This document shows positions 6,352 to 50,481 of a stretch of 64,000 nt of DNA, one piece after another. How positions within the stretch are numbered: position 1 is the stretch's first letter; the number at the start of each line of letters is the position of its first letter. The notes beneath the pieces were generated by a model, which was not told the origin of the DNA, did no database searches, and was given only the letters and a program-made list of their open reading frames with translations. Both the position numbers and the translations under genes were made by a program. The stretch spans positions 37,141-101,140 of the forward strand of contig CAKOWQ010000003.1 in NCBI GenBank assembly GCA_934122395.1. Direction: 5' to 3'. The stretch is from an uncultured Bacilli bacterium (GTDB lineage Bacteria > Bacillota_I > Bacilli_A > RF39 > UBA660).

Positions 6352-6771
6352 TTATTTTTGTAACATATTTAATAAATTGACTTTAAACATATCTTTTTCT
6401 GGATTAGATTTAGAAATCATAACCCCTTTATAAGTACCTAACTCAGCTCTATGACCTTCATCTAATATTCCTTCAGGAGTAATATTAGTAAGTAAGATTA
6501 TATGTTTATCTTCATAAACTGTATAATGTAATCTGATTTCACCATGGACTTTAGCAAATAATTCATCAGTAGGTAATTTTAATTCATATGATTTAGAATT
6601 TTCTTTTTTATTAACAGCTACTAATTCACCTAAGAAGCTACCGTTTCTTATTTCTGGATAATATTCAAAAGTTAGTTTTTTATATGCTAACATGTTGTAT
6701 TTTCTTACTGTTCTTTCTTTTTTTCTAAAGTCGTTTTCATTTTGGTACTCAAAAATATATGATTGTTTCAT
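6352..6771 (-). CDS. Hypothetical protein (about 139 aa), downstream of spoVS
   Basis: The ORF is in the track. I shortened it to the internal Met (MKQSYIFEY...), which is preceded by aaagggg. No motif I recognise. Confidence 0.45.
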   Translation of the reverse strand: MKQSYIFEYQNENDFRKKERTVRKYNMLAYKKLTFEYYPEIRNGSFLGELVAVNKKENSKSYELKLPTDELFAKVHGEIRLHYTVYEDKHIILLTNITPEGILDEGHRAELGTYKGVMISKSNPEKDMFKVNLLNMLQK

Positions 6772-7231: not shown

Positions 7232-7260
7232 TTGAAAATGATTGAGAAAAAGTATATAAT
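7232..7260 (+). promoter_or_regulatory. Candidate sigma-A promoter for the pilin gene
   Basis: TTGAAA, 17-nt spacer, TATAAT, located 24 nt upstream of the ATG at 7284. Confidence 0.4.
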
Positions 7261-7283
7261 TTTTATATTAGGAGGCTATGTTT

Positions 7284-8072
7284 ATGAACAAAAAAGGTTT
7301 TACTTTAATTGAACTTTTAGCTGTAGTTGTAATTCTGGGAGTAATTATGACAATTGCAATACCAAATGTTTTATCTACATTGGATAGAAATAAGAAAAAT
7401 ACTTTTATTGAAAATGCTAAAACTATGGTTACACAGGCAGAATATACTTTAAGGAAAGATGATAATGTTGAATTTCCTGGTGAAAAGGGAACTGCCGTTT
7501 TATTAACACTTGAATATTTAAATACTGATGATGTTTCTACTTCACCTTACAACACTAAGTACAGTCCAAGTAAATCATTTGTAGTTATAGTTAATTCTTC
7601 AACTAATGATGGTAAGATAGGCGATGTAAATGGTGACGGTATTACTGATGAAAAGGATGTAGATATGATAAGGCAAGTTCTAACTGGTGGGCAAGTTAGT
7701 TTTACTGAGGAACAAAGAGTTATTGCTGATGCTAATGGAGATGGAGAACTAGATACTAAAGATATATATTATATAAGACGATACATTTCTTCTGGAGACA
7801 TTATCAAGTATGATTATTATGTTCATTTAGTAGCTTGTACAGATTTGGATTGTGCAAATACGGAAGATAATTCAGTTAATAGGAATAGAGGAATTAACTT
7901 AATGCCTTCAAAGGATTTATCAGGAAGTAACAAATATAGTTATGTCAAGGAAGGACCTGATGTAACTGTCTCTTTAGGATTAATTAATAGTGATGGAGCA
8001 TTAGTTAGCGAAGATGAAATAAAAGCAATAACAGGTGCTACTGATATTAAAGTTTTTAATAAATTAGATTAA
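7284..8072 (+). CDS. Type IV pilin/pseudopilin-like protein with an internal dockerin-like module
   Basis: Prepilin class III signal MNKKGFTLIELLAVVVILGVIM (G|F cleavage site, Glu+5). Residues about 115-173 carry two Ca-loop plus helix repeats: DVNGDGITDEKDVDMIRQVLTG and DANGDGELDTKDIYYIRRYISSG. AGGAGG lies 9 nt upstream of the ATG at 7284. Confidence 0.8.
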   Translation: MNKKGFTLIELLAVVVILGVIMTIAIPNVLSTLDRNKKNTFIENAKTMVTQAEYTLRKDDNVEFPGEKGTAVLLTLEYLNTDDVSTSPYNTKYSPSKSFVVIVNSSTNDGKIGDVNGDGITDEKDVDMIRQVLTGGQVSFTEEQRVIADANGDGELDTKDIYYIRRYISSGDIIKYDYYVHLVACTDLDCANTEDNSVNRNRGINLMPSKDLSGSNKYSYVKEGPDVTVSLGLINSDGALVSEDEIKAITGATDIKVFNKLD

Positions 8073-8138
8073 AAAAAATTGACTAACATATTAAATTATG
8101 ATAGTATTTAGTTATAATAATAAGGAGGATAAAATAAA

Positions 8139-8696
8139 ATGAAAAAGTTAAACAAAAAGGGATTTACTTTAATTGAACTTTTGGCAGTTATCATTATTTT
8201 AGGAGTACTTTTACTTATCGCTGTTCCAAGTGTTAGTAAATATATTCAACAATCACGTGAGAAAACATACGTAACTAACTTATCTAAGATTGTTGATGCT
8301 GTTAGTACAGAAGTAAACTCATATTCTGGTGATTATACTTTCAATACTAAAGAATATTTGGTGGTACCAATTGTGTGTGTAGAATTAGAAAGAGGTAGTA
8401 GTGAAAAATCTCCATTCTCTAATTACTTACCATTGCAATCTTATGTAGTTGTTACAAGAAATGAATCTAATGGATTTGATTATCGAGTTACAGCTTTGGA
8501 TGAAACAGGTTATGGAGTTAAATTGGCTAAATCTGATGCTGCATCAGTTGTTAAAGATGCAACACCAGCAGCAATTACTAAAACTACAACTGCTGATGGA
8601 AAAAGCGTATATTCATTATCTTTATCAGATATGGGTGAATTAACAGCTAAAGTTATTACACCTGGATCTACTTGTGAATCTAAATTAGGAGCTTAG
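8139..8696 (+). CDS. Type IV pilin/pseudopilin-like protein
   Basis: Prepilin signal MKKLNKKGFTLIELLAVIIILGVLLLIAVPS. SD aaggagg lies upstream and a strong terminator downstream. Confidence 0.85.
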   Translation: MKKLNKKGFTLIELLAVIIILGVLLLIAVPSVSKYIQQSREKTYVTNLSKIVDAVSTEVNSYSGDYTFNTKEYLVVPIVCVELERGSSEKSPFSNYLPLQSYVVVTRNESNGFDYRVTALDETGYGVKLAKSDAASVVKDATPAAITKTTTADGKSVYSLSLSDMGELTAKVITPGSTCESKLGA

Positions 8697-8706
8697 TGAT
8701 GAATTA

Positions 8707-8735
8707 AAACTTAAGTATTTTACTTAAGTTTTTTT
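8707..8735 (+). terminator. Rho-independent terminator after the second pilin gene
   Basis: An 11-bp stem aaacttaagta/tacttaagttt with a ttt loop, followed by a T-run. Confidence 0.85.
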
Positions 8736-8761
8736 GTGGTAAAATATTTATAGGTGATTAT

Positions 8762-14510: not shown

Positions 14511-16505
14511 ATGAAAAAAATGAACATATTAATTTTTTTAGAAATAGTAGTAGCATTTATTTGTAGTATTACGGTAGTATCTGCTGCAACGGCACAAATT
14601 ACTGGAGGTGAGCCAACTGGAAGTGGTCATTATTGGCCGGATGTTACTCAAAATGTTTATTCTGATATACTAGGATATGCTCCAAAATGGAAGACAATGC
14701 CTTTATATAGGGTAGACCCTGATGGTTCAATTCATGGTAGTGTGGTACTTATGATAAATGGTAAGCCTGTTTATTGCGTTGAGCCAGGAATATATGCAAG
14801 TTATGAGAGTATTGAATATGATACTAATTATCAATATGATGGTGAAAAGCATGCACGTATATATTCAGAAGACATGGCATGGATTTCATACTTTGGATAT
14901 TTATCGCCAGCTGATGGAGTAAATCATTCTGACATTAGTTACTATGATGCTACTCAGAATTTAGTGTGGCAAACAGTATATCCAGGATTTCGTACAATAT
15001 ACTTTACTGATGATAACGCAAAAGATAGTTCTGACACTTATAAAATAGCTGAAAAGTCACAGGAAATATCAAATTTAATTGCTAAAGCTAAAGAAAAGCC
15101 TATAATAAATCAACCAGGAACTGTTACTGTGGGACAGACTATAACGTTTACCGGTGACTATAGCCAGCTAAATGTAACTCTATCAAGTACTAAAGATGCA
15201 ACTATAGTATCTAAAGATAGTTCAGGATTAAAAATAAAATTCAATACATTAAACTCCGTAAAAATAACAGTAAGTAAAATATTTAAAGGGGCTAATGATA
15301 TAAGTAGTGTTGTATATACAAGTAGTGATTCTCAAGACGTTATATCGTTGGGATTAAAACTACCCGCAGTATCAAATAGTATTACTGTAACTCCTAGGGG
15401 AAGTAATATATCATTAAAAAAAGTATCTTCTAGAGTTAGTGGATTCTTAGGAAATACAACATTAAAAGGCGCTGTATATTCAGTAAAATATACTGGAGAT
15501 GCTAGTTATCCTGATTTTGAATTAACAACTGATGAAAACGGTAATGCAACTACTAAAGGTACTAGTCATGATGGTAAATTACCATTAGGTACATATATAA
15601 TAAAAGAAATACATCCAAGTACAGGTTATAGATTAGATACTAAAACTTATACAATAAAGATAACTGCAGATAATTCAACTACAATTCAATCTGTTACTAG
15701 TACTGAACAAATAATTGAAGGTAAGATTCAAATTGTTAAAGTAGAAGCTAATGAAAAAACAGGTATATTAACACCTGAACCTAATAAAGTGTTTAAGTTA
15801 TATCCAAAATTCGGTGATAATCAAAATACAGAAATAGCAACATTAACAACAGATAAAGATGGATATGCAACAGTATCTAATATTCCTTATGGAAAGTACG
15901 TTTTAAAACAAGTAGAACCATATGGTACTAGTGAACCAATTGGTTCAATTGATATTGAAATTAATGAAAAAAATGAGGGGACTACTTTAAAATATGTTTT
16001 AGCAAACGCTCCATATAAAGCTAAAGTACGTATTGTTAAACGTGATAAAGATACAGATAAAGTAATAGAAAGTACTGGATTTAAATTTAAGATTAAATGG
16101 TTAAAAGATGAGAATGATAAAGATGTTAATGAATATGTTACTCAAACAATAACTTTAGCAACAGGAAAAAAGAAAAAAATAGAATACTTTGAAACTGATA
16201 CAGATGGAACAGTAATAACTCCTGAAGCTTTAAAACCAGGATTATATCAAATAGAAGAAATCAGTACTGCTGATGGATATTTAAAAGGTGATAAACCATT
16301 GAAATTTAAAATATCTCCTCAATCAGTAGGTATTGAATTAGAAGATGATTATGGTGCTGTTTTAACAGTAGATTTCTATAATGAAAAAATAGTTGATGAA
16401 CCAGAGCCAAATCCTAGTACATTTGATAATATAGTTTTTGTAGCACTTGGAATAGTTATTACAGTAGGTGTTGGATTTGTAGCATATAGAAAGATAAATA
16501 ATTAA
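14511..16505 (+). CDS. Surface adhesin with an N-terminal thioester domain (TED), Cna-B/SpaA-type repeats and a C-terminal sorting-signal-like anchor
   Basis: Signal peptide present. YCVEP carries Cys89 (nt 14775-14777) and ATQNLVW carries Gln149 (nt 14955-14957), matching the thioester Cys and Gln motifs. Repeated GAVYSV...TDENG...LPLGTYIIKE and KIQIVKV...TDKDGYA...IPYGKYVLKQ blocks are Cna-B-like. The tail is NPSTFD, a hydrophobic stretch, then YRKINN. Confidence 0.75.
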   Translation: MKKMNILIFLEIVVAFICSITVVSAATAQITGGEPTGSGHYWPDVTQNVYSDILGYAPKWKTMPLYRVDPDGSIHGSVVLMINGKPVYCVEPGIYASYESIEYDTNYQYDGEKHARIYSEDMAWISYFGYLSPADGVNHSDISYYDATQNLVWQTVYPGFRTIYFTDDNAKDSSDTYKIAEKSQEISNLIAKAKEKPIINQPGTVTVGQTITFTGDYSQLNVTLSSTKDATIVSKDSSGLKIKFNTLNSVKITVSKIFKGANDISSVVYTSSDSQDVISLGLKLPAVSNSITVTPRGSNISLKKVSSRVSGFLGNTTLKGAVYSVKYTGDASYPDFELTTDENGNATTKGTSHDGKLPLGTYIIKEIHPSTGYRLDTKTYTIKITADNSTTIQSVTSTEQIIEGKIQIVKVEANEKTGILTPEPNKVFKLYPKFGDNQNTEIATLTTDKDGYATVSNIPYGKYVLKQVEPYGTSEPIGSIDIEINEKNEGTTLKYVLANAPYKAKVRIVKRDKDTDKVIESTGFKFKIKWLKDENDKDVNEYVTQTITLATGKKKKIEYFETDTDGTVITPEALKPGLYQIEEISTADGYLKGDKPLKFKISPQSVGIELEDDYGAVLTVDFYNEKIVDEPEPNPSTFDNIVFVALGIVITVGVGFVAYRKINN

Positions 16506-44781: not shown

Positions 44782-44814
44782 AATTATAGATAAATATAAT
44801 TCGGAGTGAGAAGG

Positions 44815-46272
44815 ATGGAAAAGAAGTATATGAAAGCCAAAAAGATTATAGTTATAACGATGTGTACCTTAATATGTATAATGGCAATAGGATATGCAGC
44901 GTTTGCAACTAATTTAACAATAACAGGAACATCAAATATAGGGTCAACTTGGAAAGTAGAATTTACTAATATTGAGGAAGTATCAAAAACAAGTGGAGTA
45001 ACAATAAAAAACGTACCAACAGCAACAGGAACAACAGCAACTTTTAATGTAGATTTAACAAGTCCAGGAGACAATATAGTCTACAAAATAACAGTAGCAA
45101 ATAATGGAACATTAAATGCAGTAATAGATGATATAACAGCAAGTGAAACCGGAAGTGATGCAATAAATTTTGAAATAATAGGGATAAAGAAAGGAGATAA
45201 ATTAGCAAGTAAAACAACAACAACATTTGATGTAACAATATCATATGATAACAATGTAACAAGCCAACCTAATTTAATAGATAGTACATTAACAATAAAT
45301 ATTAATTATGTACAAGATACAGGACAAACGATAGTAACAGATGATACTATAATAGTACCAACAAGACTAGCAGCAAAAATATTGAAAGACAATGAAGCAC
45401 AAGCGGATACAAGTATAGATTTTTCTAAGATAAGTAGTGATACAAATGGTAAAGGATTATATTATACAAGTACCAATACCGAAGATAATAAAGTAACATA
45501 TTATTTTAGAGGCGCAGTAGAAAACAACTATGTAACATTCGCAGGATTTACATGGAGAATAATAAGAATAAATGAAGATGGTTCAATAAGATTAATAAAA
45601 CAAGATTCGATAGGAGATAGTGCATTTAATATAAACGTATTTGACAATGCATATGTAGGATATATGTATGGAATGGCTGGAGCTTCAACATATGAAGAGA
45701 CACATGCAAATACTAATTCGAGTACAATAAAGACTTTTATAGATGAATGGTATCAAAATAATTTAATAAGTTATTCAAGTTATTTAGCTGATTTTGGATT
45801 CTGTGGTGATAGGAGTATAACCGATGGTTGGGAATTTGATGACTATGATTCTGAGATAGATACTCTATATTCAGCATACACTAGATTAGCAGAAAACAAA
45901 ACTCCACAGTTCAAATGTCCTCAAGCAAACGATTTATATACAACCAAGACGAGTAATAAAGGTAACAAAGCTCTAGATTATCCAATAGGATTAATAACAG
46001 CGGATGAAGTAACATATGCAGGGGCTAGTTATCCGAAAGATAACAATAATTTATATTTAGCATCATTGGTTCAAATTAATTCTTGGACAATGACTCCATT
46101 TAATTATTATGGCGGTGTTACTTTATATTTTTGGTCTTGTAATGGTTATTTAGGTGATGATGCTGTTGATCCTGGAAATGAGGTAAACCCTGTAATAAAT
46201 CTAAAATCAACAATAGAAATTACAACTGGCGATGGAACTGTTGATAATCCATATGTAATTAAAACTAATTAA
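44815..46272 (+). CDS. Secreted or surface protein with a TasA/camelysin-like N-terminal region and a large C-terminal domain
   Basis: Signal/anchor KKIIVITMCTLICIMAIGYAAFATNL; the YAAF resembles the SipW-type signal of TasA/camelysin. It is followed by LTSPGDNIVYKITVANNGTLNAVID (TasA-like PGD...N.G.L block) and YYFRGAVENNYVTFAGFTWRIIRINEDGSIRLI. The ATG at 44815 is 8 nt after GGAG. Confidence 0.6.
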   Translation: MEKKYMKAKKIIVITMCTLICIMAIGYAAFATNLTITGTSNIGSTWKVEFTNIEEVSKTSGVTIKNVPTATGTTATFNVDLTSPGDNIVYKITVANNGTLNAVIDDITASETGSDAINFEIIGIKKGDKLASKTTTTFDVTISYDNNVTSQPNLIDSTLTININYVQDTGQTIVTDDTIIVPTRLAAKILKDNEAQADTSIDFSKISSDTNGKGLYYTSTNTEDNKVTYYFRGAVENNYVTFAGFTWRIIRINEDGSIRLIKQDSIGDSAFNINVFDNAYVGYMYGMAGASTYEETHANTNSSTIKTFIDEWYQNNLISYSSYLADFGFCGDRSITDGWEFDDYDSEIDTLYSAYTRLAENKTPQFKCPQANDLYTTKTSNKGNKALDYPIGLITADEVTYAGASYPKDNNNLYLASLVQINSWTMTPFNYYGGVTLYFWSCNGYLGDDAVDPGNEVNPVINLKSTIEITTGDGTVDNPYVIKTN

Positions 46273-47844: not shown

Positions 47845-47867
47845 GAAAAAAAGACCATAGGTCTTTT
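47845..47867 (-). terminator. Rho-independent terminator for the minus-strand cotY/Z-like pair
   Basis: On the minus strand: aaaagacc-tat-ggtctttt followed by T-runs. Confidence 0.75.
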
Positions 47868-48282
47868 ATACTCCACTTATGTATGTATCACCTAAACATT
47901 TTATTGCACCAATACATTTTAAGTTAATAGTGAAATAATCATTAGTAGCTACATAAGGATAGGTTTCTTGCTCTTCAGTATTAGGATTTGGTGCTAATAC
48001 TCTAAATGTTGCACAATTATCATCTAAGTTTTCAATTCTAAATACTGTACTTGTTCCTGGTGTTCCATTTAATGTATAAGGCATTGTCCATAATGTGTTA
48101 TTGCAACAACTGTACAATGAAATAGGTCTTGTATTTAAACATACATTATTTAAAATAGGTCCTAGGAAAGGTTTACTACATCCATTTTCTACATCACATA
48201 CTTCTCCTTTTTGTTGAAGCATAAGAATTAGTTCTAGTGTTTTGATAAAAGAACAAGAGCATTCATTATTGTTTCCACACAT
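47866..48282 (-). CDS. CotY/CotZ (ExsY)-family cysteine-rich spore coat/crust protein, copy 2
   Basis: Family pattern: N-terminal C.C..IKTLELI..LQ, then CLNTRPI, FRIENLDDNCATFRVL, and a C-terminal INLKCIGAIKCLGDT. This compares with B. subtilis CotY/Z C.C..V..IL..Q ... FFRVE.L.D.CATL..L ... VDL.CFCAIQCL. Confidence 0.75.
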   Translation of the reverse strand: MCGNNNECSCSFIKTLELILMLQQKGEVCDVENGCSKPFLGPILNNVCLNTRPISLYSCCNNTLWTMPYTLNGTPGTSTVFRIENLDDNCATFRVLAPNPNTEEQETYPYVATNDYFTINLKCIGAIKCLGDTYISGV

Positions 48283-48299
48283 TTTTTCTTCCCCCTTTC

Positions 48300-48710
48300 T
48301 TATAAATCAACTATAGTATCGCCTAAGCATTTTATTGCACATACGCATCCTAAATTAATAGTAGCTGTATTTCTAGTAGTTATATATGGCCTAGTTGTAT
48401 CTGTTGTATCTGGATTTGCAATAAGAATAGATACTACTACACATCCGTCATCAACTTTTTCAATTCTAAATATGCTGCTTCTACCAGTACTTGCTTCACC
48501 ATTTATAGTTGTAGAATAATCAAGTTCTATTAAATTATTGTTACATCCATAGAAAGTTATAGGTCTAGTGTTTAAGCATAGAGTAGGTACTTCTACTCCT
48601 AAAAATGGTCTATTACATGTATTATCAAAACATTCATCTTTTTCAGCACTGCGTTGTAAAAGATCGATTATTTTTAATGTTTTAGTAAAACAACAACAAT
48701 TTTCACCCAT
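48300..48710 (-). CDS. CotY/CotZ (ExsY)-family cysteine-rich spore coat/crust protein, copy 1
   Basis: A paralog of 47866-48282 with the same blocks: CCCFTKTLKIIDLLQ, CLNTRPI, FRIEKVDDGCVVV, INLGCVCAIKCLGDT. It is separated from copy 2 by 17 nt that contain only an SD. Confidence 0.75.
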   Translation of the reverse strand: MGENCCCFTKTLKIIDLLQRSAEKDECFDNTCNRPFLGVEVPTLCLNTRPITFYGCNNNLIELDYSTTINGEASTGRSSIFRIEKVDDGCVVVSILIANPDTTDTTRPYITTRNTATINLGCVCAIKCLGDTIVDL

Positions 48711-48903: not shown

Positions 48904-50481
48904 ATGAAGAAGTATTTAATTATTATGTCGTTTTTATTTTTAATTTTACCAGGAAGTGTTTATGCATCTAGTTTGAAATTAAATTGTGATAGTACTAATG
49001 TAGCGGGGAATGTATTATCTTGTGGTATGTCACTTACACTTGATGAAGATGTTACTTATAATAAATTGGAAGCAGTTATTAAAGTAGATAATTCTTCAAG
49101 TATAACTTTTGAAGCAAAAAATGGTGTTGATGCTACTATTAATAATAATAATCTTGTTATTAATGGTGCTAATGTTACTGATTTTGGTAGTTTAAAAATA
49201 AAGTTTCCTAGTGAGGCTTCTGGTAGTAAAAATATAACGGTATCAGCATTAAAACTTTATAATGATGATAATTTAGTGGCGTCTTTAGATGATGCTGTTA
49301 GTAAAGTTAATGTAAAGTCTAGTGTTAATACATTAAAATCTTTAAGTGTTAGTAATTGCGATAATTGTACGATGAGTCCTTCATTTAAAAGTAATACAAC
49401 TGTTTATATTGTATATACTAAATCTAATAAAATTACTATATCAGCAAGTGCTAATGGTAGTGCTAAAGTAATAGGCGCAGGTACTAAGAATTTAACTAAA
49501 GATAGTGAAACTTTTAAAATAACAGTTACTTCAGAATCTGGTAGTTCAAAAGTATATAAAGTAATTGTAAACAAAGAGAAAAGCAATGATATTTCATTAG
49601 CTAGTTTAACTATAGATAAAGGAACATTATCTCCTACGTTTTCTAGAAGTGTAACTAGTTATTCTGCTGTGGTTGATAGTGATAAAGTAGTTATAAAAGC
49701 AACTGCAAGTGATACTAGTGCTAGTGTATCTGGTACAGGTGAAAAATCATTAGAATATGGAAGAAATGAATTTACTGTTACTGTAACTGGTAATAATGGA
49801 AATACTAAAAATTACTTAATTACAATTTCTAGACCAGATACAAGAAATGCCAATGCTTATTTAAAATCGTTAACTATAGATGGTAAAGATATAGAATTCG
49901 AAAAAGATATTGTTGAATATGAGTACAAAGTTGGTAAGAATGTTGATAGTCTTGATATAAAAGCAGTACCTGAACTTGAATCTTCAAAAGTAGAAATATC
50001 TGGTAATGAAAAATTTCAATTGGGTAAGAATACTGTAACTATAACAGTAAAAGCAGAAGATAATAGTGAAAAAGTTTATAAAATTATTGTCATAAAAGAG
50101 GAGAACGTTTCAGACGATCTTTATTTGGATAATTTAAAAATTAAAGGATATGACATTAATTTTGATAAAGAAAAATTTGAATATACTTTGAAAATAAAAA
50201 ACGAAAAGGAACTTGATATTATAGCTTTTGCCAGTAATGGGTACAAAACTGAAATTGTTGGTAATGAAAGTTTAAAAGATGGCAGTATAATTAAAATAAT
50301 TGTTAGTGATGAAGATGGAAATAGTAATATTTATAAAATAAAGATAGAAATGGATAATAACGAAGTATCATCTAGTAGTAGTGATGGTATTAACTATATT
50401 CCTTATATTATGACTAGTTTATTAGTTATATTGTTTATACTAGATTTAATACAAGTTATAAAAAGATTGCGTAATAAATAG
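48904..50481 (+). CDS. Membrane-anchored surface protein: N-terminal beta-rich module, four cadherin-like beta-sandwich repeats and a C-terminal TM anchor
   Basis: Signal peptide (LFLILPGSVYA|SS). Four repeats of about 85 aa start L(K/A/D)(S/N)L(S/T/K)(V/I) and end VYK(V/I)IV.KE, YLITISR or IYKIKIE (nt 49324-50349). The C-terminal anchor is IPYIMTSLLVILFILDLIQVIKRLRNK. Confidence 0.7.
   Translation: MKKYLIIMSFLFLILPGSVYASSLKLNCDSTNVAGNVLSCGMSLTLDEDVTYNKLEAVIKVDNSSSITFEAKNGVDATINNNNLVINGANVTDFGSLKIKFPSEASGSKNITVSALKLYNDDNLVASLDDAVSKVNVKSSVNTLKSLSVSNCDNCTMSPSFKSNTTVYIVYTKSNKITISASANGSAKVIGAGTKNLTKDSETFKITVTSESGSSKVYKVIVNKEKSNDISLASLTIDKGTLSPTFSRSVTSYSAVVDSDKVVIKATASDTSASVSGTGEKSLEYGRNEFTVTVTGNNGNTKNYLITISRPDTRNANAYLKSLTIDGKDIEFEKDIVEYEYKVGKNVDSLDIKAVPELESSKVEISGNEKFQLGKNTVTITVKAEDNSEKVYKIIVIKEENVSDDLYLDNLKIKGYDINFDKEKFEYTLKIKNEKELDIIAFASNGYKTEIVGNESLKDGSIIKIIVSDEDGNSNIYKIKIEMDNNEVSSSSSDGINYIPYIMTSLLVILFILDLIQVIKRLRNK

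Follow-up and report, generated by a model that had tools for sequence, protein, structure and literature searches.

Type IV filaments gain functions through extra modules, and the cohesin-dockerin pair is the best-known plug-and-socket among bacterial proteins. Modular pilins were defined by Raynaud et al. 2021 (PNAS; PMC8179133), who counted more than 1,200 such proteins in 264 architectures. The main text of that study does not mention dockerins; its Dataset S1 lists IPR012902-IPR002105-IPR002105 for 2 proteins (PMC8179133), IPR002105 being a dockerin family. Here, we analyze a 64-kb stretch of contig CAKOWQ010000003.1 (hereafter the window; ~28% guanine plus cytosine, GC) from an uncultured spore former within the Bacilli. 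It encodes two adjacent type IV prepilins, pilin 1 and pilin 2, the first of which carries a type I dockerin, as judged by sequence and predicted fold, within its globular domain. A sequence-only reading of the window had not recognized this combination as a described architecture. That view has to be given up, as N_methyl together with a dockerin is present in Dataset S1 and a second family of dockerin-bearing pilins was found as well. Our full-text literature search found no paper that discusses a dockerin-bearing pilin. What is new here is the nested position of the dockerin; a dockerin-bearing modular pilin as such had already been catalogued.

The dockerin module of pilin 1

Pilin 1 matches Pfam Dockerin_1 (PF00404) with an E value of 1.3e-8 and 35.4 bits (cut-off 22.9) over profile positions 2-56 of 57. 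The match covers residues 115-170 of the mechanically called open reading frame (ORF), which starts at 7278 and has 264 amino acids (aa), and thus residues 113-168 of the 262-aa product that begins with the ATG at 7284. The latter is the likely start, as the sequence-only reading had assumed, with an AGGAGG at 7271-7276, 8 nucleotides (nt) upstream. Both calcium loops that had been picked out in the sequence-only reading, DVNGDGITDEKD and DANGDGELDTKD, are confirmed as consecutive loops with helices, i.e., the duplicated calcium loop plus helix of type I dockerins is present. Residues D1, N3, D5, G6, and D12 are kept in both loops of all full-length distinct variants (27/27) from three clades, and none of the 27 variants has a frameshift or a stop. 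An AlphaFold2 model of pilin 1, built with 29 family members (mean predicted local distance difference test, pLDDT, of 87.4), shows the architecture of a pilin, with an alpha1 helix of about 50 residues (8-58) and a globular domain with a beta-sheet (strands 70-75, 99-104, 176-185, and 202-208). Between strands 99-104 and 176-185, the insert is predicted to form a three-helix domain (helices 123-133, 142-148, and 158-169) that superposes on solved type I dockerins. In a Foldseek search of the PDB with this predicted model, type I dockerins were the sole confident matches (1ohz_B, template modelling score, TM, 0.87; 2ccl_B, TM 0.84; root-mean-square deviation 1.2 Å). By sequence, solved pilins align to pilin 1 over alpha1 only. 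The inserted module is a canonical type I dockerin by sequence and predicted fold, and pilin 1 is very probably a real and functional dockerin-bearing pilin.

The prepilin character of both proteins, likewise proposed from their N-termini, is borne out by curated profiles. Pfam N_methyl matches pilin 1 with 32.2 bits and pilin 2 with 32.5 bits (cut-off 21.2), and both pass TIGR02532 as well (33 bits, cut-off 16.3). The leader of pilin 1 reads MNKKG/FTLIELLAV, with cleavage between G5 and F6 and Glu at +5, and displays the complete class III signal of type IV pilins (basic leader, Gly, Phe at +1, Glu at +5). That of pilin 2 reads MKKLNKKG/FTLIELLAV, again with Glu at +5.

Pilin 2, whose start at 8139 is preceded by AAGGAGGA, is co-oriented with pilin 1 and lies 66 nt downstream of it. 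Both genes have a strong ribosome-binding site, pilin 2 always adjoins pilin 1 on related contigs, and the two genes constitute one small operon. The region also holds a near-consensus promoter-like site (Table 1); such sites are no more numerous there than in shuffled sequences. A predicted AT-rich hairpin followed by a T-run (-10.1 kcal/mol, z = -2.84 versus shuffles) is probably the terminator of the operon. It was missed by the consensus scan because its stem has fewer than three G-C pairs.

Table 1. Positions of the features discussed in the text. Positions that follow an L-number refer to other loci, all others to the window.
Feature	Position	Strand	Description	Basis or remark
Promoter-like site	7232..7260	+	TTGAAA, 17-nt spacer, TATAAT; 11/12 consensus positions	Consensus scan, pattern match only
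Pilin 1	7284..8072	+	262-aa type IV prepilin with internal dockerin	Pfam N_methyl and Dockerin_1 above gathering score
Inserted type I dockerin module	7620..7802	+	Residues 113-173; two 12-residue calcium loops, helix after each	
Pilin 2	8139..8696	+	185-aa type IV prepilin paralogue, no extra modules	Pfam N_methyl
AT-rich hairpin and T-run	8706..8736	+	12-bp stem, 3-nt loop	Predicted RNA fold
Candidate docking partner	48904..50481	+	525 aa: signal peptide, N-domain, Cadherin-like repeats, C-terminal transmembrane anchor	~41 kb downstream
N-domain of candidate docking partner	48967-49323	+	~Residues 22-140	
139-aa protein	6352-6771	-		No Pfam or NCBIfam match
664-aa surface protein	14511-16505	+	Thioester domain and three SpaA/prealbumin-like domains	Weak TED match
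488-aa secreted protein	44806-46272	+		No family match for window copy
CotZ-like spore-coat genes	47866-48710	-	Two tandem genes, divergent from the 525-aa gene	
Second dockerin-pilin family	L052 5657-6616; L108 10001-11422; L109 5220-6641		3-6 C-terminal dockerins	
Large prepilin	L068 9989-12124		711 aa	Erysipelotrichales metagenome-assembled genome
Prepilin array	L058 1255-12040		Five tandem genes, each for a ~675-aa prepilin	Hadza gut Bacilli metagenome-assembled genome
Pilin cluster with GspE-type ATPase	L040 1654-6206		397-aa ATPase, pilin genes, nfo, PBP	Erysipelotrichia metagenome-assembled genome
Homologue of 488-aa protein	L061 8239-9969		DUF6273 and Cadherin-like domain	
Paired SLH-domain and Peptidase_C39_2 proteins	L100 5961-9059; L101 5172-8204			Relative in same 90% BipA cluster

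Site, distribution, and age of the insertion

The sequence-only reading had aligned the two paralogues and suggested that a module was inserted at a beta-hairpin turn of the pilin globular domain. The site is supported by alignments with orthologues and by the model, which both place the insert between two strands of the sheet. The insertion itself also stands, although it is better shown by the orthologues than by pilin 2. Relative to these orthologues, the insert is one clean indel of 58-61 residues, flanked by SFVxIVNxxxN and ITEYKYYVHLVAC. The pattern that follows the insert is I(T/I)(E/K)YxYYVHLVAC across orthologues, and about 90 pilin residues follow the dockerin in pilin 1. In the insert-less orthologues, the loop at the insertion site already varies by 3-11 residues.

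A homologue search with pilin 1 returned 772 proteins. Among the matches listed, the combination of N_methyl and Dockerin_1 is confined to the three closest clusters (99, 83, and 69% identity), and the remaining homologues have about 180-230 aa and N_methyl alone. Relatives with an insert-less pilin, a point that the sequence-only reading had proposed to check, do exist. At the 90% level, the clusters around the 99%- and 69%-identity proteins comprise 14 + 23 = 37 member sequences, spread over dozens of independent contigs that reach 839 kb. The related contigs belong to metagenome-assembled genomes (MAGs) labelled 'uncultured Bacilli bacterium', several of them from Hadza human-gut assemblies, and a sequence identical to pilin 1 (P0136) was seen on 23 contigs. 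The dockerin-bearing pilin is restricted to one lineage, i.e., two or three species of uncultured human-gut Bacilli. An artefact of assembly or gene calling, e.g., a chimeric contig, would have to have produced the same 261-262-aa protein in the same synteny many times over, as it occurs on numerous contigs that were assembled independently, from different samples and with different assemblers. This recurrence excludes an assembly artefact, and the probability that the architecture is artefactual is negligible.

Genomes with and without the insert share the same gene order, namely AMP-dependent ligase, PlsC-type acyltransferase, SpoVS, a 139-aa gene, pilin 1, pilin 2, nfo (endonuclease IV), and PBP, which indicates that an orthologous pilin gained the module and that it is not a different gene. 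The pilin pair upstream of nfo and PBP is a unit conserved in dozens of MAGs of uncultured gut Bacilli, and the label 'orphan' that had been given to the pair does not fit it. The 139-aa protein of this neighborhood is 87-100% identical across MAGs whose neighboring housekeeping proteins share only 47-85%. Its gene is co-oriented with pilin 1 and lies ~78 nt upstream of it in insert-less relatives. The orientation of the SpoVS/139-aa block is reversed in the dockerin lineage, and a 104-aa gene of the block has also been lost in the species of the window.

Synonymous sites are close to saturated when the window is compared with the 69% clade (synonymous divergence, dS, about 1.1), yet the insert has stayed in frame. 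The ratio of nonsynonymous to synonymous divergence (dN/dS) in this comparison is 0.43 for the insert versus 0.14 for the rest of the gene, with 43% identity in the dockerin versus 77% in the rest of the pilin. The insert is under purifying selection. These values bear on the possibility that the pilin pair is a relic without machinery and the dockerin insertion a neutral accident that was tolerated. A relic would be in keeping with the rearranged region upstream of the pilins, where the SpoVS/139-aa block is inverted as compared to insert-less relatives, and with the lack of machinery near the pair in any close relative. However, strong purifying selection on the pilin (dN/dS 0.08-0.22) and clear selection on the insert at such a high dS, the 27 variants free of frameshifts and stops, and the conservation of the pair across dozens of MAGs are hard to reconcile with neutrality, and we consider a relic very improbable.

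The GC content at third codon positions (GC3) of the insert equals that of its host gene (14.8% vs 14.4%), and the insertion is therefore old and ameliorated rather than a recent transfer; the higher overall GC content of the insert is due to its amino-acid composition. A foreign origin of the insert was rejected given the GC3 match. No near-identical donor dockerin was found in a HMMER search with the dockerin segment, in which the matches listed were 30-45% identical. The locus therewith offers a dated example of a domain insertion into a pilin loop, with ancestor-like orthologues still available for comparison.

Candidate docking partner and proposed filament assembly

We propose that a conserved ~200-aa pilin acquired a complete type I dockerin (~60 residues), in frame, in a naturally length-variable beta-hairpin loop, and that this took place in an ancestor shared by two or three species of human-gut Bacilli. 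Pilin 1 keeps the class III signal peptide and the alpha1 assembly helix, and would be processed and incorporated into a type IV filament, or into a short pseudopilus, by machinery whose genes would lie elsewhere in the genome. The dockerin, loaded with Ca2+, would be displayed on the outside and would most probably dock to a cohesin-type module, for which the N-domain of the 525-aa protein encoded ~41 kb downstream is the best candidate. Docking would link the filament to the cell surface or one cell to another. To this explanation as a whole, i.e., a dockerin displayed on a filament or pseudopilus for Ca2+-dependent docking to a cohesin-type module, we assign a probability of roughly 45%. 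Taken separately, the claim that the dockerin acts by binding a cohesin-like module has just short of an even chance. A dockerin-bearing pilin would provide the filament with a specific, calcium-dependent, high-affinity docking site.

The only Pfam family matched by the 525-aa protein is Cadherin-like, with two stretches above threshold and four repeat units by eye, and its N-domain is predicted to sit at the tip of this repeat stalk on the transmembrane anchor. The AlphaFold2 model of the N-domain, built from a shallow alignment of seven sequences (pLDDT 72.7), is all-beta. Ranks 1-8 of the Foldseek search of the PDB with this model were all cohesins (E 4.9e-5 to 1.4e-3, TM 0.48-0.67), headed by 2jh2 (E 4.9e-5, TM 0.61/0.67) and followed by 2w1n, 5n5p, 2vo8, and 2xdh. 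These include non-cellulosomal cohesins of Clostridium perfringens (2jh2, 2w1n), a type III cohesin of Ruminococcus flavefaciens (5n5p), and an archaeal cohesin (2xdh). The structural matches point to a cohesin-like predicted fold of the N-domain. The 525-aa protein is kept in synteny in the 69% clade, where it is 60% identical overall. As read from the alignment, the N-domain is ~25% identical between the clades, and the repeats and anchor are identical at roughly three-quarters or more of their positions. The N-domain is also the most polymorphic part of the protein within species. As the fastest-diverging part of its protein, like the dockerin in the pilin, it was counted in favor of a partnership. 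Even so, it is unlikely that this very protein is the partner of the dockerin. If the N-domain is a cohesin, it predates the dockerin of the pilin, and the pilin would then have been plugged into a system already in place. The 525-aa gene is divergent from a tandem pair of CotZ-like spore-coat genes, an arrangement that is conserved in relatives.

Several findings weigh against docking to a cohesin-type module or against this particular partner. In the Foldseek list of the N-domain, whose model is of moderate confidence, other beta-sandwich folds come close behind the cohesins. HMMER searches (phmmer, hmmsearch) with single sequences and a 5-sequence profile of the N-domain gave no match at E <= 10 in Pfam (including the cohesin family PF00963) or the PDB, and hhalign against the type I cohesins of CipA returned a probability of 0.4%; with all of these negative, an assignment to the cohesins at the sequence level was rejected. 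A homologue search with the N-terminus of the 525-aa protein yielded nothing at E <= 0.1. The 525-aa protein, including its N-domain, is also encoded in relatives with a dockerin-less pilin (L106 and L015, the same MAG). There is thus no co-occurrence signal, and co-occurrence of the protein with the dockerin is not supported. Neither the window nor ~100 kb of related contigs yielded a prepilin peptidase, an assembly ATPase, or a platform gene. Dockerin-like modules are widespread in non-cellulosomal proteins that have no known cohesin partner. An exhaustive HMMER search with the dockerin segment matched 2632 proteins at E <= 0.001, the best of which carry many tandem dockerin-like repeats each. 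Finally, all characterized modular pilins are minor, tip-located subunits (PMC8179133), and it is therefore not a given that each filament subunit bears one dockerin.

In an alternative explanation, the insert is a structural or adhesive Ca2+-binding module without a cohesin partner. Its role might be to stabilize the pilin, to act as a calcium sensor, to hold pili together in bundles, or to attach directly to a ligand of the host or the diet. In pseudopilins of type II secretion, the Ca2+ sites of pilin loops are structurally important. No cohesin is detectable by sequence in the window, the tandem repeats of the best of the 2632 matches differ from classical cellulosomal enzymes, and the 3-6 tandem dockerins of the second pilin family described below are more reminiscent of a surface array made of repeats than of one plug. 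Yet the insert is a complete duplicated F-hand whose predicted model superposes on cohesin-binding dockerins at 1.2 Å, one loop would suffice for binding calcium, and the same genome encodes a surface protein with a predicted cohesin-like fold. On balance, a module without a partner is somewhat unlikely. Without a partner, pilin 1 would be a further entry in the catalogue of modular pilins, whose diversity is already great.

No further dockerin turned up in a motif scan of the window and the related loci, and the annotation of the window contains neither a carbohydrate-active enzyme with a dockerin nor a scaffoldin. Another surface protein encoded in the window, of 664 aa, has a thioester domain and three SpaA/prealbumin-like domains. 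Its gene sits between SpoIIIAH-like and GerM-like genes in the species of the window only; it is absent from that position in the 69% clade and in insert-less relatives. We considered this adhesin as a lineage-specific partner and rejected it as unrelated, given its absence from the 69% dockerin clade.

As regards assembly, the earlier statement that the window lacks pilus-assembly genes was confirmed in two ways: essentially all ORFs of the window were annotated without revealing any, and a hidden Markov model (HMM) of GspE-type ATPases had no match in it. Putative GspE ATPases beside the pilins of L034, L035, L060, and L061, picked up by a Walker A regular expression, turned out to be ABC transporters. 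The idea that the pilin locus commonly carries machinery was withdrawn. Among the uncultured-Bacilli loci, the HMM of true GspE-family ATPases matched L040 alone. This locus of a distant relative is the only related one with a GspE-type ATPase, whose gene immediately precedes two minor-pilin-like and four pilin genes, from which it is divergent, and then nfo and PBP. Its layout shows that an nfo-linked pilin cluster can belong to a type IV filament system, with no bearing on the genome of the window. Homologues of the 488-aa secreted protein of the window are encoded inside pilin clusters of related MAGs (L061, L016, L032, and L093), and the one in L061 has a DUF6273 and a Cadherin-like domain. 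The 488-aa protein may be pilus-associated. It does not begin with a class III signal (N-terminus …AIGYAAFATNLTITG). A relative in the same 90% BipA cluster encodes paired proteins with SLH and Peptidase_C39_2 domains, and the paired SLH-domain proteins suggest an S-layer-type cell envelope in the group.

Pilin 1 could be a minor pilin or pseudopilin of low abundance, at a filament tip or in a short pseudopilus akin to those of Com systems or the type II secretion system (T2SS), and the dockerin would then be present in one or a few copies; this fits binding of a cohesin and does not fit a polyvalent scaffold. The characterized modular pilins (PilB and PilC of Streptococcus sanguinis, CofB, GspK, and ComZ) are all minor subunits at the tip, and in GspK, too, the pilin beta-sheet contains an inserted domain (PMC8179133). 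The N-terminus of pilin 1 resembles the ComGC and GspG profiles only below their cut-offs, and relatives have 2-6 pilin paralogues at the locus, a number typical of minor-pilin sets. Against a minor role, pilin 1 is the first gene after the near-consensus promoter-like site and has a strong ribosome-binding site, the insert is small (~7 kDa), and no other candidate for a major pilin is visible in the window. We consider a minor pilin less likely than not. The opposite extreme is a type IV filament turned into a polyvalent docking scaffold with a Ca2+-dependent dockerin on every subunit, as already envisaged in the sequence-only reading. This filament would plug into the cohesin-like module of the 525-aa stalk protein on the same or a neighboring cell; it might also recruit other cohesin-bearing proteins. 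Such a scaffold, which is quite improbable, would be a pilus-based counterpart of cellulosome assembly that serves cell-cell or cell-surface organization and not fiber degradation. If the dockerin does bind a cohesin-like surface protein, uncultured gut commensals would have a new way to organize their surface or to aggregate, and the pilin would be a natural template for engineering decorated filaments.

Comparison with described modular pilins and docking systems

Pilin 1 combines a pilin module (N_methyl) with a domain that has no specific tie to the biology of type IV pili (Dockerin_1), as modular pilins do. It shares with PilB (vWA module) and PilC (lectin module) of S. sanguinis the N-terminal pilin module and an extra module that is presumably displayed on the filament (PMC8179133). 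While the module is fused C-terminally via a linker in the modular pilins of Raynaud et al. 2021, the dockerin of pilin 1 lies between strands of the beta-sheet. In this respect pilin 1 is like GspK, the minor pseudopilin of the T2SS, which also has its extra domain between beta-strands of the pilin fold (PMC8179133). The insert of GspK, however, is an alpha-domain of more than 100 residues, of unclear function and without a recognizable family, whereas that of pilin 1 is a recognizable, self-contained docking module, and there is no sequence relationship between the two proteins beyond the alpha1 helix.

Dockerins have been joined to pilins more than once. Four of the best 150 representatives in the search with the dockerin segment are pilins with at least three tandem C-terminal Dockerin_1 domains, or 3-6 by counting calcium loops. 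They make up a second dockerin-pilin family (P0242, P0246, P0278, and P0341; loci L052, L108, and L109) that is unrelated to the pilin 1 family and in which the fusion arose independently. As in pilin 1, a class III signal goes together with Dockerin_1. A lone pilin gene stands amid housekeeping genes in a conserved locus of uncultured Firmicutes (nrdD-nrdG-dut-pilin-rpmB-dnaE), with neither cohesin nor pilus machinery nearby. The difference lies in the tandem C-terminal arrangement versus the one internal dockerin of pilin 1.

MAGs of the surrounding lineage commonly encode large modular pilins (300-1000 aa). At the position orthologous to pilin 1, L068 encodes a prepilin of 711 aa with Flg_new (the Listeria-Bacteroides repeat) and a Cadherin-like domain; curiously, it also has a transmembrane segment at its C-terminus. 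L058 has five tandem genes for large prepilins (Table 1). That the lineage makes many other modular pilins, including the one at the orthologous position, was counted in favor of pilin 1 being a modular pilin.

With the cellulosomes and amylosomes of Clostridium thermocellum and Ruminococcus spp., pilin 1 shares the canonical signature and predicted fold of type I dockerins. It differs from them in that the window contains no dockerin-bearing enzyme and no multi-cohesin scaffoldin, and in that the carrier of the dockerin is a filament subunit and not an enzyme. A further comparison is with the non-cellulosomal cohesin-dockerin pairs of glycoside hydrolases/toxins of C. perfringens (2jh2, 2w1n, and 2vo8), likewise from a low-GC gut Firmicute and used for docking outside the degradation of plant cell walls. 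The cohesins of C. perfringens are the best structural matches to the predicted fold of the N-domain of the 525-aa protein, without detectable sequence similarity. In C. perfringens, both modules are part of secreted enzymes, whereas here the dockerin is nested in a pilin and the predicted cohesin-like domain belongs to a membrane-anchored repeat protein.

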